64,000 bases of DNA. Origin: a bacterium. Its GTDB lineage: Bacteria > UBA8248. The notes beneath the pieces are model-generated. The model made no database searches. It saw nothing but the letters and a program-made list of their open reading frames with translations, and was not told the origin of the DNA. The position numbers were made by a program, and so were the translations under genes. The DNA is taken from positions 2,144,001 through 2,208,000 of the forward strand of contig OZ244799.1 of the NCBI GenBank assembly GCA_965219955.1, read 5' to 3'. This document shows positions 50,405-58,583 of this stretch, piece after piece; the stretch's first letter is position 1, and each line of letters opens with the position of its first letter.

Positions 50405-50788
50405 ATGTCGGATGGAACGGTCACGCTGTTCGATCAATCCCAAAAGAAACCCCAAGCCCTTGAAGGCATTACGGTTACGCCGCTCGCCAACCAGAAGGTG
50501 AGCGAGATTCTCAAGGCGGAAGGCAAGACCGGCCACGGGCTGCGACTGGCCGTCACCGCCGGCGGCTGCTCGGGTTACAACTACGGCCTCTATTTCGAGG
50601 AATCCGCCAACCCTGAGGATAAAGTGTTCTCCGCCGATAGCTTCGACGTGTTCGTGGACCCCCAGAGCTATCCCGTCATCGCCGGAACGGAAATCGACTT
50701 CGTGGACAGCCTCCAGGGCTCGGGCTTCAAGATCAACAACCCCAACGCCATGAACATGTGCGGTTGCGGAAAATCGTTCACTACGTGA
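50405..50788 (+). CDS. A-type Fe-S carrier (IscA/ErpA/HesB family)
   Basis: GGCSG ... FKINNPNA..MCGCGKSF. Confidence 0.93.
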   Translation: MSDGTVTLFDQSQKKPQALEGITVTPLANQKVSEILKAEGKTGHGLRLAVTAGGCSGYNYGLYFEESANPEDKVFSADSFDVFVDPQSYPVIAGTEIDFVDSLQGSGFKINNPNAMNMCGCGKSFTT

Positions 50789-50805
50789 TAAAACAATGCC
50801 TTACG

Positions 50806-50838
50806 AGCCCCGGGCATCACGCGCCCGGGGCTTTTTTT
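50806..50838 (+). terminator. Intrinsic terminator after the iscA-like gene
   Basis: agccccgggc-atcacgc-gcccggggct followed by a T-tract. Confidence 0.75.
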
Positions 50839-50860
50839 GTGACCAACGAGAGACTTCGCC

Positions 50861-52315
50861 GTGAACCGAAACGATAAGACTTCGGCGTGGCGAGCGCCCG
50901 GGGCCGTCGTCCTCGTCTCCTGCTACGAGTTGGGGCACCAGCCCCTGGCCGTCGCCTCGCCCATGGCCTTTTTGCGCGAGGCGGGCTTCCGGCCCTGGGC
51001 GATGGACATCGCGGCGGAGGATTTCTCGCCCGAAAAAATCGCAAAGGCGAAATTCGTCGGCATCAGCGTACCGATGCACACGGCGCTCAGGCTCGGCGTG
51101 GAGGTGGCGGCGAAAATACGCGAGACGAACCCGGGGTGCCATATCTGCTTCTATGGCCTCTACGGCCTGCTCAACAAGGACTATCTTCTTGAAAACGGGG
51201 GAGATTCGGCGGTCGGCGGCGAGTTCGAACTGCCGCTCGTGAAGCTCGTTCAAGGGCTGTCGCAATCCTCGGAGAAGCTCGACGTTCCCGGCGCGGCCAC
51301 GAGAGAGCACACATCCGGCCCGTATCTCGAAAAAATCCCCCTGCTCAAACCTGACCGGGAAGGATTGCCCGCGCTTCAGGCATACGCCCATCTCGTGAAG
51401 GAGGGGCAGCATTATCCTGCGGGAGCCGTCGAGGCGAGCCGCGGCTGCAAGCACTTGTGCCTCCATTGCCCCATTCCGCCGGTTTACGAGGGCCGCTTCT
51501 TCGTCGTGCCCCAGGAGAAGGTTCTGGAAGACATCGAAGACCTGGCGGCGCAAGGCGCGCGCCACATCACCTTTGCGGACCCGGATTTCCTGAACGGGCC
51601 ATCGCATGCGCAAAGGGTCACCCGCGCCATGCACGAGAGGTTTCCCTCGCTCACATTCGACTTTACGGCCAAGGTCGAGCACCTCATCAAGCACGAGGCG
51701 CTTCTGGCGGAGTTCGCAGAATACGGATGCGCGTTTTTCGTCACAGCGGTTGAATCTTTGAGCGACATCGTCCTTGGCCATCTGGTGAAAGGACACAACC
51801 GGGAAGACGTCTTCCGCCTGGTGAAAGCCGCCCGGGAGGCGCGCGTTTCCATCCGGCCGTCTCTGGTCGCATTCACGCCGTGGACTACTGCACAGGATTA
51901 TTTCGATCTGCTTGATTTTATTGAAGAATACGCACTAATCGACGAGGTCGACCCGATTCAGATGGCCATCCGGCTGCTGGTGCCGCCGGGCTCCCATTTG
52001 CTCGAATCACCCCACATGACGAGATACATCACCGGACTCGACGCCGAGAATTTCATCTACCGCTGGGAGCATCCGGACGCGAGAATGGACAAGCTGCACG
52101 AGGAGGCGCTCTTCCTCGCCGAAGATGCGGCAGCGCGCCAGGAGGACGCCGCCGTGACTTTTTCCAGGATTCGCGAATTGGCGGCCGATATTCTCGAACG
52201 CCCCGATCAGGCGCAGCCAAAGGCCGCCTTCGCGCCCGACCGAATCCGCCCGCCTCGCCTGACCGAATCGTGGTTCTGCTGAGCGGAGCCCACCCAGGGC
52301 CAGTTGGCCCTCTGA
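50861..52315 (+). CDS. Radical SAM selenoprotein with C-terminal CUAEP tail (UGA 52280-52282 read as Sec)
   Basis: GCKHLCLHCP radical SAM motif; C-terminus RLTESWFC-TGA-AEPTQGQLAL-TGA; hairpin 13 nt after the UGA. Confidence 0.8.
52296..52311 (+). promoter_or_regulatory. Candidate bacterial SECIS for the radical SAM gene
   Basis: AGGGCC-AGUU-GGCCCU stem-loop starting 13 nt 3' of the in-frame UGA. Confidence 0.55.
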
Positions 52316-52330
52316 GCCACCGGATACGAC

Positions 52331-52681
52331 TTACGTTAAAACCTGTGAATACGTTTCCGCGTCGAAACCGACGATGAGGGCGTTTCGATGTTTGATGACC
52401 GGCGCCCTGAGCGTGCCCGAGCGGCCCATTAATAAAGCCAGCACGTCTTCGCGCGCAGGGTTTTCCTTTTTGATATTCAGGTGAATCACCTTTCTGCTCC
52501 TGGTCGAATAGACGTCCGTAACGCCGTCCAGAACCGAGTCGACGTTGCTCTCATCCACCACGTCTTTTCTGGAACTGGCCTGCTCGGATACCTCGATACC
52601 ATTTTCCGCAAGAAACGCTTGCGTTTTGACGCAGGTCTTTCAGCCGGAGCGATGGTAATACCAATCCACTGTCTTGGACAT
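52331..52681 (-). CDS. ArsC/Spx-like thioredoxin-fold selenoprotein with UxxC motif (UGA 52642-52640)
   Basis: GAGGAG RBS and ATG at 52681 give MSKTVDWYYHRSG-U-KTCVKTQAFL..., in frame with the 76-aa ORF ending GTLRAPV...LIVGF. Confidence 0.8.
52607..52623 (-). promoter_or_regulatory. Candidate bacterial SECIS for the ArsC-like gene
   Basis: CGCAAG-CGUUU-CUUGCG stem-loop starting 16 nt 3' of the UGA. Confidence 0.5.
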
Positions 52682-52795
52682 GTCTCAGAATCTCCTCACG
52701 AAACGAGAAACCCTCCCGCTCAAAAACCTTGACGGCGGCTGAGCGATTCGGGGGATGCCCGCCTTCAACTCACCCGTGATGAAGGCGCAATTGCT

Positions 52796-53509
52796 TCAAA
52801 GATTCATCACGGCGACGGCCCGGATCGGAGAGCCGGTGCCCGCGCGAATCCTGAGCGGGAGTCCCACATAGAGAAATTCCTTCCCCGCCACCGCTTCGAT
52901 ATTCGCGAGATTCTCCGTGTTGTGGCGCTGAAGTTCCCGGCAAAGCACGTGGCAGGGAAACGTCAGCTCTATGGTGTTCACGCCGGCGTCGATGCTGGGC
53001 GCATCCTGGCCGATATTCACCACGCCGCATTCGCGATAGAGGAAGTTCGCGGCGTCGTAGCCCAGGCCCGGGTAGGTGTTGAGGTAATCGTCCGTCGGAT
53101 AGGTGCGCTTGAAATGGCCGCCCGTGAAGAGGAACGTGCCGTCTTTGGGAGGCGTAAGTCCCGCCGCCGAAAGCTCGTCCTGCAAGAGTTGTAAGGATAT
53201 CTCCTCCATCGGCTCCACCTTGCCCGTGAAATCCAGCGCGACCGCCCGGGTGATGAACCATTCGAGCGGCGCCTGATCGATGTTCGGCGCCGTTTCCCGC
53301 TCATCGATATGGCTGACCGAATCGGTATGCGTCGGCCCGTGATCGCACATGTGGAGCATCATGGCCGCATACGTGATGTCCTTGGGTTTGATCGGCGCGT
53401 TGGCCGCGTCTTCGTGCCGGGCGACGTACTCGATTTCCGTCGCCGGGTGCCCGGGAAACCTGGGCGCGCCGGTGTAGATATCCTGGCTCAGATCGATGAT
53501 TTCGTACAT
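52796..53509 (-). CDS. Cyclase family protein (variant metal motif)
   Basis: IIDLSQDI, HGPTHTDSVSH, ENLANI and GLPLRIRAGTGSPIRAVA. Confidence 0.85.
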   Translation of the reverse strand: MYEIIDLSQDIYTGAPRFPGHPATEIEYVARHEDAANAPIKPKDITYAAMMLHMCDHGPTHTDSVSHIDERETAPNIDQAPLEWFITRAVALDFTGKVEPMEEISLQLLQDELSAAGLTPPKDGTFLFTGGHFKRTYPTDDYLNTYPGLGYDAANFLYRECGVVNIGQDAPSIDAGVNTIELTFPCHVLCRELQRHNTENLANIEAVAGKEFLYVGLPLRIRAGTGSPIRAVAVMNL

Positions 53510-53534
53510 GCGCATCTCCTCAAAAATCAATCCG

Positions 53535-53564
53535 AAAAACCCCCGCACGCGAATGCGGGGGCTT
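53535..53564 (-). terminator. Intrinsic terminator-like hairpin between the LLM gene and the cyclase gene
   Basis: Minus strand cccccgca-ttcgcg-tgcggggg followed by ttttt. Confidence 0.6.
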
Positions 53565-53579
53565 CCTCGTCAACAAAAA

Positions 53580-54824
53580 TCAGGCGACGCCGCCGACCGT
53601 GACGCCGTTCGATACCGGACATTCCAGATCGGGCCATATCTTCGTCATGAACGTCTCGAGTTCATAAATGACTTCTTCCTTTGGGCATTGCGCGTAGTGC
53701 CAGATCAGGGTGATGAACTCAGAAGGCACTTTTTCGTACGTCTCCTCCCACTCGCGCTTGAGCCTGTCCACCGGACCACCCAGGAAGATGCCGCTTTCCT
53801 TGATGTTCTGGATCCAGTCGATGCTCTCCGTGTCGTCCGGGAACTGCGGGAAGAAGGGCACGTAGAAGTTCTGGTAGATGTCCTGATCGTAGTTCTTGAG
53901 CTTCTCGTCGTATTCTTCTTCGGTGTCCGTCACATGGATCCACCGGCAGACGCACTGCCGCTCGCCATGCGCGAAGTTGTGGCCCGCCTTGGCGGCTTCT
54001 TCCACGTAGAGATGGGAGAATTCCTCCATCTTTTCCAGTTTGGTGAAATACACGGGCCGGAACCCGTGTCTCGCCGCGAATTTGATGGAATCCGGGCTCG
54101 CGCTCACCGCCTGGAACACGGGCGGATAAGGATCCTGATAGGGCTTGGGAACGACGCTTACCTTTCGCACCCGATTGTCGTCGCCGATCTCGCCGATTCC
54201 GCCGGCGTCCCGGGCGCTCTTCCAGGCCGGGTAATCGATGCCATCCTCATACGGGTAGGGAATCTCGTAGTAATTCCCCTTCACGTCCACCGAGTCTTCC
54301 TGCCAGAATTTCAGGAGCATCTCGACGCGTTCTTCAAAAATGTCGCGGTTCTTCACGTCGTCGGCCCCGCCGAGGGCGTCGGAGACGGTGGCCCGGGTGT
54401 CGCTGAACTGCCCCAGGACGTTCGACCATCTGGACTGGTACCCTCTTGCCAAACCACAGAAGAACTTCCCCTTGGTGATGTGGTCGAGAATCGCCGTCTC
54501 CTCGGCCACGCGAATCGGATCCTGCGTAGCCATGACGTAACCCAGCGCGCCCACCCGCGCATTCTTGACGTGATTAGCCCACCAGGCGTTGAGAACGCCC
54601 GGATTGGGACCTACCTCGTAACCCTCCGAATGCAGGTGGTGCTCGATGGTGCTGATGCCCCAGACACCCATCTCATCCGCGGCCTTTACGATGTCGACCC
54701 ATTCATGAAGCACGTGATGGTACAAATCCTTGTCCCTGGCCAGGGGCCTTTTCTGCTCGCGCTCCTCCCGGTTTTCCGTCGGCAGCATGGGGTATAGCTG
54801 GATGATCACTTTGGGTTTTGCCAT
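53580..54824 (-). CDS. Luciferase-like (LLM class) flavin-dependent oxidoreductase
   Basis: IEHHLHSEG, DPIRVAEETAILDHITKGK...GLARGY and PKPYQDPYPPVF. Confidence 0.9.
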   Translation of the reverse strand: MAKPKVIIQLYPMLPTENREEREQKRPLARDKDLYHHVLHEWVDIVKAADEMGVWGISTIEHHLHSEGYEVGPNPGVLNAWWANHVKNARVGALGYVMATQDPIRVAEETAILDHITKGKFFCGLARGYQSRWSNVLGQFSDTRATVSDALGGADDVKNRDIFEERVEMLLKFWQEDSVDVKGNYYEIPYPYEDGIDYPAWKSARDAGGIGEIGDDNRVRKVSVVPKPYQDPYPPVFQAVSASPDSIKFAARHGFRPVYFTKLEKMEEFSHLYVEEAAKAGHNFAHGERQCVCRWIHVTDTEEEYDEKLKNYDQDIYQNFYVPFFPQFPDDTESIDWIQNIKESGIFLGGPVDRLKREWEETYEKVPSEFITLIWHYAQCPKEEVIYELETFMTKIWPDLECPVSNGVTVGGVA

Positions 54825-54857
54825 CGCCTTATTCTCCTTTCTCGACAGAGATTTTCT

Positions 54858-55400
54858 TCACCCTCGGGCGCCGGAGGCCAGCGCTTGTTTAGATAAATTC
54901 ATTTTATTTTTCACTTTATGGAGAAGCCTGGATAGCCTCTCCCTTTCATCGTCCTCCAAATCATTCATGAGGTCCGCTATGCGTGAGTAGTAGTCCGGGA
55001 AAATGGCGTGCAGGCTCTCTTTTCCCTTGGGCGTCAGGCGCACGATGACTTTCCTCCTGTCACCATCGTGGCTGAAACGCTCGATGAGTCCGTCGCGCTG
55101 AAGTCCCTTCATCAACCCGGTCATCGTCGCGCGCGTCACGCCTGCCTGCCCGGCCAGCTCCGACGGGCTGAGGCCCGAACCGTTGTTTCTCATTTGCGAA
55201 CGCAGCAGCAGCAATAAAACGATAAACCTGCCCTGCGATACGCCGTGATTGGCCAGATACGTTTCAAAGGCGGTAAGCATATCACTGCCTACCTGCAAGA
55301 AAAGATAAAACAACATGACGGAGGATGTATCCAGAGAGGAATACTCCGGCACGAGTGGCCTGAAATCTTCCTCGTTGGGCAGTTCTTTCATATAGAACAT
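54858..55400 (-). CDS. MarR family transcriptional regulator
   Basis: SPSELA...VTRATMTGLMKGLQRDGLIER...DRRKVIVRLTPKG. Confidence 0.92.
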   Translation of the reverse strand: MFYMKELPNEEDFRPLVPEYSSLDTSSVMLFYLFLQVGSDMLTAFETYLANHGVSQGRFIVLLLLLRSQMRNNGSGLSPSELAGQAGVTRATMTGLMKGLQRDGLIERFSHDGDRRKVIVRLTPKGKESLHAIFPDYYSRIADLMNDLEDDERERLSRLLHKVKNKMNLSKQALASGARG

Positions 55401-56558: not shown

Positions 56559-58583
56559 GTGGGGCTTCGCATCTCCATAGGGGCGATTATCGCCGTTCTG
56601 CTCGGCGGAACAGGATATTTCGCCCAGCAATCCCAAACGACAAAAGATCTGCTCCAACAGCGTGAGGTTGAACTCAAAACAGAAAAAGAGAGTTCCGCCA
56701 AGCTTAAAAGCGAAATTCAGGGCCTCAAAGACATAGACCAGAAGATGAAGAGTTTGGAGTCCCAGCTCGCAAAAGAGGTCGCCTCCGCCAAGACGCAGAT
56801 GGAAGAGCTGGACAAGCGCGTCACCGAGAAAAGCGCCGCTATCGAGCAAGACCAAGCGAAAATTCAAAGCCTCGAGGCCGCGCTCCAGGAAAACCAGACC
56901 GCCCTCGATAACGAGCGCAAGGCCCGAGCCGAGACGGAAAAATCAAACCAGCAAAATCTCGAGCTCGCCGCCAAGAGGGCTGGCGACATAGAGCGCCTCG
57001 AAACCCAGGCTGAGCAGATGCGTAAACGCATCGCGGAGAAAAACACCGGCATCAAGCGGGAAAAAGCCGAAATCCGAAACCTCAAAGCCGTAGCGGACAT
57101 CATCGAAGCCTCCCTCAATTACCAGAGCAGATTACGCGCCAAGGCCGAAAAGGCGAATCAACAAAACCTCGCGCTGGCGGCCAACCGGGCCGAAGACATA
57201 AAGCGACTCGAAGCCGCTCTCAAAGAAAATCAAACGACTCTTGCGAGCGAACGCAAATCGAGATCCGAAGAAATAAAGCGTCTCGAAGCACAGGCCAAAG
57301 TGTCGAGCCGACTCATCGCCGAAAAAAATACCGCCATCGAGCAGGAAAAAGAGAAAGCCCGAAAATTCGAAATCGCCCTCAAACGAATTCAGGCGAACCT
57401 CAAGAACGACCGCAAAACACAGGCGCTCGTCGACAAATTGAGCAAACAAAGCCTCGAGTTCGCAGCCGATCGGGCCAAAGAGATTAAACACCTCGAAAGT
57501 GTCCGGGGCATTCTCGAAGCCCAGGTTCAGAGAATGGACAAGCTCATTGCGTCCGAGCAGAAAGAAGCGAAAAAAAAGGACATCGCAGCCAAACCCAAAA
57601 CGCAAGCTACGACAGCAACGGTGAAAGCGTTAAATGGCGAACTCGCGAGAAAGCGATCCGAGGAAATAGCCCGGCTCGAAAAAACCAGAATGCTCCTCAA
57701 CACCCAGGTGCAGGAAATGGGCCGGATGATTACGGAGAAAAACGCCGGGATCGCTCGTGAAAAAACGAAAGCGCAAAGCCTGGAACTCGCACTCAACCAA
57801 ATCCGCACAAGCCTGGATAATGAGCGCCAGACGCGAGCGAAGGCGGAAAAAGCGAATGCCCGAAATGCAGAACTCGCGAGAATCAGAGCCGAAGAGATAG
57901 GGCGCCTCGCGAAAACCAGAGAGCTTCTTCGAGCCCAGGTTCAGGAGATGAGCCAACTCATCGCGGAGAAAACATCCGTGGCCGAACTCATCAAGAACAA
58001 GCTGGATCAGACGAACCTGAGTCTGGCGGAAACCATCAAGAAACACACGCTGGCGTTCGCCCGCTCGAAAGTCCTGGAGAAAAGAGCGCGCGAAGAGGCC
58101 GAAAGGGCCAAAAGGCTGGAATCGGACCTGAGCGAAATGAGCGGCAAGCTCAAGAAGCAACACGTCAGTCTGCAGCGGACCAAAGATCTGCTCCGCCTCA
58201 CCATCGTAAACAGCCTCTTGTTCGATTCCGGCAGCGCCACGCTCAGGGAGAAAGGCTTCGAAACGCTTTCGAAAATCGCGGAGTTTCTCCAGAAGCAAAC
58301 GGACAAGATGATCCGCATAGAAGGGCATACGGACAACCGGCCCATCAAAGGCAACCTGCTCGATCGCTACCCATCGAATTGGGAACTTTCGTTCGCGCGC
58401 GCTATCGCCATCGTCAAATTCCTGGAATCGAAAAACATATCGCCCGCGCGCATGTCGGCGACCGGGCATTCGTTCTACCGTCCCGTGGCGGACAACGGCA
58501 GCGAAGAGGGCCGCGCCAGGAACAGACGAACCGTCATTCTTCTTGGCAGCCCCCGTCCTGCTGTGGAAGGGGCGACTCGCTAG
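56559..58583 (+). CDS. OmpA/MotB-C peptidoglycan-binding protein with long repetitive coiled coil
   Basis: N-terminal TM helix; ~500-aa coiled coil; LFDSGSA, EGHTDNRP, SNWELSFARA and GRARNRR. Confidence 0.85.
   Translation: MGLRISIGAIIAVLLGGTGYFAQQSQTTKDLLQQREVELKTEKESSAKLKSEIQGLKDIDQKMKSLESQLAKEVASAKTQMEELDKRVTEKSAAIEQDQAKIQSLEAALQENQTALDNERKARAETEKSNQQNLELAAKRAGDIERLETQAEQMRKRIAEKNTGIKREKAEIRNLKAVADIIEASLNYQSRLRAKAEKANQQNLALAANRAEDIKRLEAALKENQTTLASERKSRSEEIKRLEAQAKVSSRLIAEKNTAIEQEKEKARKFEIALKRIQANLKNDRKTQALVDKLSKQSLEFAADRAKEIKHLESVRGILEAQVQRMDKLIASEQKEAKKKDIAAKPKTQATTATVKALNGELARKRSEEIARLEKTRMLLNTQVQEMGRMITEKNAGIAREKTKAQSLELALNQIRTSLDNERQTRAKAEKANARNAELARIRAEEIGRLAKTRELLRAQVQEMSQLIAEKTSVAELIKNKLDQTNLSLAETIKKHTLAFARSKVLEKRAREEAERAKRLESDLSEMSGKLKKQHVSLQRTKDLLRLTIVNSLLFDSGSATLREKGFETLSKIAEFLQKQTDKMIRIEGHTDNRPIKGNLLDRYPSNWELSFARAIAIVKFLESKNISPARMSATGHSFYRPVADNGSEEGRARNRRTVILLGSPRPAVEGATR

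Follow-up and report, generated by a model that had tools for sequence, protein, structure and literature searches.

Two convergent genes of catalogued selenoprotein families in a sponge-associated bacterium, probably neighbours by lineage-specific gene order

Does a pair of selenoprotein genes that end almost tail to tail form a functional unit, or do the two share little more than a place on the chromosome? The question is raised by a locus in a 64,000-nucleotide (nt) stretch of DNA (the window; positions 2,144,001 to 2,208,000, forward strand, of contig OZ244799.1, assembly GCA_965219955.1) from a bacterium of the lineage UBA8248. One gene of the pair encodes a radical S-adenosylmethionine (SAM) protein whose C-terminal tail contains a cysteine followed by selenocysteine (Sec, U), alanine, glutamate and proline (CUAEP), and the other encodes a small UxxC protein of the ArsC/Spx fold. 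A preliminary description of the window proposed that the two genes, together with an iron-sulfur (Fe-S) carrier gene (iscA) upstream of the first and with genes for a MarR regulator, a luciferase-like monooxygenase (LLM) and a cyclase upstream of the second, make up an undescribed Sec-dependent pathway to organoarsenicals or other organometalloids. Our results indicate that both genes are ordinary members of already catalogued selenoprotein families and that their adjacency is limited to a few related bacteria associated with sponges. We consider it probable that they sit tail to tail by lineage-specific gene order and not as a dedicated pair, with ArsL-like chemistry for the radical SAM protein. 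The features of the pair, in positions of the window, are as follows.

50861 to 52315, plus strand: CUAEP-tail radical SAM predicted selenoprotein, 484 amino acids (aa); NF040546, 662 bits; CX3CX2C at C196, C200 and C203
52280 to 52282, plus strand: predicted Sec codon (UGA) of the radical SAM gene, from translation and codon comparison over 100 loci
52296 to 52311, plus strand: hairpin of the selenocysteine insertion sequence (SECIS) type, GGGCC-AGUU-GGCCC, 16 nt past the U of the UGA; compensatory changes in 4/4 consensus pairs
52331 to 52681, minus strand: ArsC/Spx-fold UxxC predicted selenoprotein, 116 aa (WYYHRSG-U14-KT-C17); NF041106, 117.9 bits
52607 to 52623, minus strand: SECIS-type hairpin CGCAAG-CGUUU-CUUGCG, 19 nt past the U of the UGA, from comparison of loci
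52640 to 52642, minus strand: predicted Sec codon (UGA) of the ArsC-like gene; TGA in 108/110 loci; Cys form in P0168

In the standard code, the radical SAM open reading frame (ORF) extends from 50861 to 52282 and ends at the TGA at 52280-52282. When that UGA is read as U, the protein continues as C473-U474-AEPTQGQLAL to a final stop, TGA, at 52313-52315. The ArsC-like ORF, on the minus strand, begins with the ATG at 52681 and reads MSKTVDWYYHRSG-U14-KTC across the TGA at 52640-52642, ending at the TAA at 52331-52333. The tail-to-tail ends given in the preliminary description (52315 and 52331) were confirmed, with 15 nt (52316-52330) between the two convergent stop codons.

The genome encodes the machinery that such a reading calls for. 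On the same 4.28-Mb contig, selA (578 bits; cut-off, 267.9) adjoins selB (390.1 bits; cut-off, 242.25), and the tRNA-Sec, with a score of 75.9 bits in Rfam (gathering threshold, 47) and the anticodon tca according to ARAGORN, lies on the contig of selA, selB and selD. The selD gene (332.7 bits; cut-off, 125; C1:2942487-2943449) carries one in-frame TGA, and therefore the selenophosphate synthetase of the organism is itself a selenoprotein. Over 100 radical SAM loci, the tail codon is TGA in 61 and TGC or TGT in 21; the tail pattern was unmatched, with the sequence cut or divergent, in 18. Relatives of the ArsC-like gene have TGA at the Sec codon in 108 of 110 loci, and a full-length Cys form is represented by P0168 (WYYHRPGCTTC). 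Because single-sequence folds of the short stretches after the UGA codons are no better than those of shuffled sequences (z, -0.79 and -0.16), our argument for the SECIS elements is based on comparison. Among 30 sequences, double changes are present in all 4 consensus stem pairs of the radical SAM hairpin (one pair, for example, is GC in 15, AU in 10, GU in 5 and broken in 0). The ArsC-like hairpin, ACGCAAG-RGUUY-CUUGCG, is kept in nearly all loci displayed, with occasional double changes. With the Sec machinery, Cys forms in relatives and conserved hairpins, both in-frame UGAs are Sec codons as far as can be judged from sequence, as the preliminary description had proposed.

Standard gene callers truncate both genes. 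Among database relatives, 15 of the 18 radical SAM proteins aligned stop at WFC, and 46 of the 47 ArsC-like matches are stubs of 75-86 aa. Contigs from RNA libraries (3 runs from 3 studies; relatives at 88-99% likeness) overlap parts of the iscA, radical SAM, cyclase, LLM and marR genes. One of these covers 51834-52316, crossing the radical SAM UGA to the true stop, and the 5' bin of the ArsC-like gene was matched in one run. Such contigs, which show no level, strand or ends and whose uncovered stretches carry no meaning, are compatible with expression. Sponge, coral and marine metagenome runs (7 studies) contain sequence words of the stretch. In run X18 of the RNA libraries, several contigs from other organisms resemble the window only at 52256-52307 (summed bin depth, 122) and are unlike it on both flanks; the segment that encodes WFC-U-AEPT and carries the SECIS hairpin thus appears to be kept at the DNA level far outside this lineage.

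The two genes had been presented as hidden and undescribed, which they are not. Both belong to curated NCBIfam selenoprotein families, and both are named in the accessible parts of the 2022 preprint of Haft and of a 2026 review. The UxxC protein scores 117.9 bits against NF041106 (ArsC family (seleno)protein; cut-off, 85), with U14-K-T-C17 near its N terminus, the invariant residues W7, Y9, R11, U14 and C17 and a GxLRAP motif, and we found no difference between it and the family. It corresponds to the entry "arsenate reductase-like protein, UxxC" in the available portion of PMC13188914 and to "Arsenate reductase 2, cd03032, UxxC" in that of PMC2398784; as far as the accessible text of these sources goes, UxxC ArsC-like selenoproteins have been catalogued in a 2008 ocean survey and in reviews of 2022 and 2026. 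The ArsC-like fold ascribed to the protein stands, since it matches NF041106 and the broad Pfam ArsC/Spx family PF03960 (32.6 bits); no arsenate reductase model is among the 7 NCBIfam families that matched at E <= 0.01. The next best match is TIGR01617 (Spx/MgsR), at 49.5 bits and below the cut-off of 75.05, and by sequence the UxxC protein appears to be nearer to Spx/MgsR than to arsenate reductases. When it is compared with solved structures of Spx, its UxxC falls on the CxxC, in keeping with the shared ArsC/Spx fold; Spx is longer by about 15 residues. Two ArsC-like selenoprotein copies are present in G042 (genus g8, 2.2 Mb), at C11:38831-39151 and C27:4087-4407, neither of them beside the radical SAM gene of that genome.

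The radical SAM protein scores 662 bits against NF040546 (CUAEP/CCAEP-tail radical SAM (seleno)protein; cut-off, 500), and its residues 16-483 cover positions 1-467 of the 468 in the profile. None of C196, C200 and C203 varies among 19 sequences, and the tail WFC-U-AEP is present. The protein shares with its family the full-length match, the CX3CX2C motif, the tail and the SECIS hairpin, and within the protein we found no difference. NF040546 is named as an uncharacterised CU-motif selenoprotein in the available part of the 2022 preprint of Haft. Our literature search (3-amino-3-carboxypropyl, radical SAM, selenocysteine) returned no paper on the CUAEP family by title or abstract, and in a sequence search of the PDB all matches were to remote radical SAM cores (best E, 5e-08).

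The likeness to ArsL noted earlier was upheld. Over residues 16-411, which make up 82% of its length, the protein shares 35% identity with an RCCLKC-tail protein encoded on a Bacillus cereus plasmid; the two have the same two-domain body, and C473-U474 align with the CC of the RCCLKC tail. Against the ArsL model NF040542 it scores 302.6 bits, below the cut-off of 450, and NF040546 is the sister family of ArsL. According to the accessible portion of the ArsL literature, ArsL generates a 3-amino-3-carboxypropyl radical, As(III) is bound by three cysteines of its tail, and that tail binds no cluster. Whereas the ArsL tail has three cysteines (RCCLKC), that of the CUAEP protein offers two chalcogen ligands (C473 and U474). 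The CUAEP family also has two extra conserved cysteines, Cys96, which is invariant, and Cys21, which is nearly so; the ArsL-type protein has Thr and Asn, respectively, at these positions. Finally, the CUAEP protein is near universal in the phylum (48/51 genomes) and ArsL is sporadic. In a quick SH-aLRT tree, which carries long-branch and composition warnings, the ArsL-type row is on a branch of 2.69. The quick tree also places the radical SAM proteins of class f4 in a deep clade of their own, separated from those of family f1 by sequences from other phyla, which suggests an old transfer or paralogy. A CUAEP member in its CU form, 50% identical, is encoded on the megaplasmid NC_011961.1 (L133:6980-8470) of the cultured thermophile Thermomicrobium roseum DSM 5159. 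The RefSeq coding sequence halts at the in-frame TGA, and the neighbours encode a pyridoxal phosphate-dependent aminotransferase and an MFS transporter; this organism is a possible experimental host.

Whether the two families form a module was examined in three sets of loci. These were 51 species genomes of the phylum, in which a family was counted when it scored above its cut-off; the best 80 of 597 radical SAM matches, which are not a random sample and include a non-kin subset of 39 loci flanked by 3 kb or more on each side; and 80 ArsC-like metagenome loci, of which 42 have at least 1,500 nt downstream. Neighbours within 3 kb of the radical SAM gene were found by de novo clustering of flanking ORFs and by tblastn. 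Of the best 80 radical SAM loci, 8 have an ArsC-like gene no more than 3 kb away, and all 8 are kin: L023-L028 are of the same genus as our organism, and L029 and L031 encode radical SAM proteins identical to those of G010 (genus g2) and G036 (genus g3), of the same family. None of the 39 well-flanked non-kin loci has an ArsC-like neighbour. Seen from the ArsC-like gene, a radical SAM gene stands beside it in 1 of the 42 metagenome loci, where an identity of 64% marks it as kin; no neighbour family of any kind occurs in more than 6 of the 80. The co-occurrence of the two families across genomes, put forward earlier as a check on the module, thus largely fails.

Within the phylum, NF040546 is found in 48 of the 51 genomes and NF041106 in 33, with both in 32. 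The two genes are adjacent in 26 of these 32, namely 23/23 in genus g1, two in g2 (G010 and G012) and one in g3 (G036); they are adjacent in G011 too, where both matches are cut. Both are present but apart in G042, G044, G048, G003, G004 and G013 (genera g8, g9 and g13), by 437 kb in G004; G013 (740 contigs) and G048 (radical SAM gene at a contig edge) were scored as not adjacent and are weakly resolved. Adjacency therefore occurs in 3 of the 6 genera that hold both genes and is confined to g1, g2 and g3 of one family. The radical SAM gene occurs without the ArsC-like family in 16 of the 51 genomes, the reverse only in G008. In the quick tree, g4, which has no ArsC-like gene and in which the cyclase gene immediately follows the radical SAM gene, is the sister of g2, and the adjacent genera g1 and g3 are not resolved apart from g5 and g9, most of which are without the ArsC-like gene. 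The block ClpB-iscA-radical SAM-slot-BI-1 is common to family f1, so the adjacency of the pair travels with housekeeping synteny. What fills the slot is variable in this family, where the ArsC-like, cyclase, LLM and marR genes may be present or absent, and therefore the pairing is probably one of local synteny with an optional gene and not a conserved functional unit.

The conserved companions of the radical SAM gene are genes for Fe or Fe-S carriers and for an ATP-grasp amino-acid ligase. A protein of Fe or Fe-S trafficking (IscA, an IscA-NifU fusion, Nfu_N-NifU or YggX) is encoded at 46 of the 80 radical SAM loci and an ATP-grasp protein of the L-amino-acid ligase type at 33; DUF169 (20/80) and an ATG22/MFS transporter (6/80) follow. 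In the 39 well-flanked non-kin loci, the carrier is present in 28, the ligase in 22 and at least one of them in 32. Labels of the radical SAM loci include Acidobacteriota, Nitrospirota, Planctomycetota, Chloroflexota, Rokubacteria and Poribacteria. A further set of 20 phylum loci has iscA upstream in 13 and YggX in 7 (class f4), and an ATP-grasp gene adjoins the radical SAM gene in 5 of the 7 YggX loci. A tight, co-directional YggX-radical SAM-ATP-grasp set is seen in class f4 at L216, L218, L222, L225 and L231 (G004, G002, G001, G007 and G003). With these counts, the Fe-S carrier is the one neighbour in our locus with real comparative support, and the earlier suggestion of a link between it and the radical SAM gene proved to be conserved across phyla.

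Our locus differs from the NF040546 loci with an adjacent ATP-grasp ligase (33/80) in that it is without this gene and has the ArsC-like neighbour instead. The ligase is encoded elsewhere in the genome, at C1:4238755-4240610 (L235:5756-7610), 2.04 Mb from the radical SAM gene, where a gene for an NfuA-like protein (182 aa, with a degenerate A-type domain and a NifU domain) converges with a gene for an ATP-grasp protein of 416 aa that shares 48% identity with the ligase linked to the radical SAM gene in other phyla; a gene of the short-chain dehydrogenase/reductase family overlaps the start of the latter. The usual CUAEP partners are thus kept jointly, about 2 Mb away.

The other features of the locus are listed here.

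50405 to 50788, plus strand: A-type Fe-S carrier (IscA/ErpA-like), 127 aa; TIGR00049, 120.9 bits (cut-off, 58.8); PF01521, 70.1 bits
50805 to 50840, plus strand: terminator-like hairpin (11 pairs, 9 of them G-C) with a U run in the gap between iscA and the radical SAM gene; -25.9 kcal/mol, z -3.96
52796 to 53548, minus strand: putative cyclase, arylformamidase-like; PF04199, 80.6 bits
53533 to 53569, minus strand: terminator-like hairpin with a U run in the gap between the LLM and cyclase genes; -25.5 kcal/mol, z -3.11; absent from the consensus terminator scan
53580 to 54824, minus strand: LLM, 414 aa; PF00296, 89 bits; no NCBIfam model above its cut-off
54858 to 55400, minus strand: MarR-family regulator, 180 aa; PF01047, 38.1 bits
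55436 to 55464, minus strand: sigma-70-like promoter match (11/12) upstream of marR; a consensus match only, with 3 found against 2.6 expected

The iscA-like, marR, LLM and cyclase genes are as first described, by their NCBIfam and Pfam matches, and the two terminator-like hairpins reported earlier do fold well. The IscA-like protein has GGCSG and a C-terminal MCGCGKSFTT, which provide the C...CGC ligands, and its TIGR00049 score places it in that family. The true start of the cyclase gene is probably an internal ATG. Outside the locus, window positions 56559-58583 encode a protein of 674 aa in which long repetitive stretches, rich in E, K, A and Q, resemble coiled coils and an OmpA domain (69.5 bits) is C-terminal.

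For a joint pathway, in which the UxxC selenoprotein supplies a reduced metalloid to the Cys-Sec tail or re-reduces it and both proteins make an organoarsenical or organometalloid amino acid, there are the kinship with ArsL, the alignment of the CC and CU tails, the binding of As(III) by the ArsL tail cysteines and the adjacency maintained in g1, g2 and g3. The available part of the preprint of Haft adds that CU motifs recur among proteins that handle heavy metals. We nevertheless regard this pathway as quite unlikely, given the counts of the pair in non-kin radical SAM loci (0/39) and ArsC-like loci (1/42), the 16 phylum genomes with the radical SAM gene alone, the lack of an arsenate reductase match at E <= 0.01 for the UxxC protein and the orientation of the genes, which are convergent and so are not co-transcribed. 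The arsenic context is also missing. On plasmid pAH820_272 of Bacillus cereus AH820 (L134, 244218-255420), the gene for the radical SAM protein with an RCCLKC tail lies among genes for ArsR, a MIP channel, GNAT, ACR3 and ArsC. Queries made from the ArsR, ACR3, MIP and GNAT genes of this locus (arsM was not queried) matched 0 of 100 CUAEP loci, and the ACR3 query had no match at E 1e-5 in the genome of our organism. What the plasmid does share is an ATP-grasp gene, about 3 kb from the ArsL-type gene, that is homologous to the CUAEP-linked ATP-grasp and matches 29 of the 100 CUAEP loci; by this homology, both sister families may feed a ligase. A very unlikely alternative, in our view, is that the ArsC-like gene is the last gene of a minus-strand unit and a redox helper of the cyclase or LLM chemistry, not of the radical SAM protein. 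The marR, LLM, cyclase and ArsC-like genes are on one strand, with gaps of 33, 31 and 114 nt, the interval from the cyclase gene to the ArsC-like gene showed neither a terminator nor a promoter match, and the ArsC-like gene of G013 is near an LLM gene without a radical SAM gene. However, genomes of g8 carry marR-LLM-cyclase without an ArsC-like gene in the slot, the ArsC-like gene of G048 adjoins BI-1 without marR, LLM or cyclase, and the 80 metagenome loci show no conserved ArsC-like neighbour. The cyclase gene adjoins the radical SAM gene in g1, g4 and g8 only, and marR-LLM-cyclase is partial or absent in sister genera; what had been taken for a part of the module is a variable insert.

A different product would follow if Cys21, Cys96, Cys473 and Sec474 held an auxiliary Fe-S cluster that served as a sacrificial sulfur donor, the bond formed then being C-S (or C-Se) and not C-metalloid. 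The repair of LipA by NfuA is the paradigm for an auxiliary cluster used in this way. Fe or Fe-S trafficking proteins of three unrelated kinds (A-type, Nfu-type and YggX) accompany the radical SAM gene across phyla, in 46 of the 80 loci and in all 20 further phylum loci, and the conservation of Cys96 and Cys21, replaced in the ArsL-type protein, points the same way. Against these stand the ArsL tail, which binds no cluster as far as the accessible text reports, and Sec itself, an unusual cluster ligand, and we hold the proposal to be unlikely. Several points weigh against our own preference for lineage-specific gene order. The adjacent convergent pair has been kept in three genera in spite of identities of 64-66% for the radical SAM protein and 45-48% for the ArsC-like protein, and such an adjacency outlasts what is usually seen of chance neighbours. 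The UxxC protein is chemically suited to reducing a Cys-Sec selenenylsulfide. The 80 radical SAM loci were the best of 597 matches and no random sample, the metagenome loci are often short (42 of 80 with at least 1,500 nt downstream), and the assemblies of G013 and G048 are fragmented. The 3-amino-3-carboxypropyl chemistry, in turn, has the 35% identity to ArsL-type proteins as its sole basis. A further possibility is that, in the sponge-associated lineage, a system of CUAEP radical SAM protein, ATP-grasp enzyme and Fe-S carrier makes an organo-chalcogen or organo-metalloid amino acid derived from the 3-amino-3-carboxypropyl group and has, in addition, recruited the UxxC protein as a dedicated reductant of the tail or as a substrate chaperone. 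We give this combination little chance; if it were true, the recruited protein would provide a Sec-to-Sec relay in carbon-heteroatom bond formation.

Keeping lineage-specific gene order as the preferred reading, we can outline how the proteins might act; family memberships, Sec decoding and the pattern of synteny come from the comparisons above, and all of the chemistry is inferred. The [4Fe-4S] cluster at the CX3CX2C motif of the radical SAM protein would cleave SAM, most likely in the fashion of ArsL, to give a 3-amino-3-carboxypropyl radical. The flexible Cys473-Sec474 tail would hold the atom to which this radical is joined, perhaps with the assistance of the family-specific Cys21 and Cys96. 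As the acceptor, a metalloid, selenium or the sulfur of a sacrificial cluster is conceivable, and the Fe-S carriers would fit the last of these. The amino-acid product would then pass to the ATP-grasp enzyme of the L-amino-acid ligase type, encoded 2 Mb off beside the NfuA-like gene, and the IscA-type carrier encoded upstream would supply or repair the Fe-S cluster. The ArsC-fold protein would be a small thiol-selenol oxidoreductase of the Spx/ArsC fold, in which Sec14 attacks and Cys17 resolves, with no fixed genomic partner, and marR-LLM and the cyclase gene would be a variable insert on the opposite strand.

To our knowledge, ArsL is the only enzyme that forms a C-As bond. The CUAEP radical SAM protein is its closest relative and is present in 48 of the 51 genomes of this phylum and in many others, and its chemistry is the lasting question that this locus leaves. 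The locus shows that the ArsC-like neighbour is optional, and this narrows the search for the true partners of the radical SAM protein.

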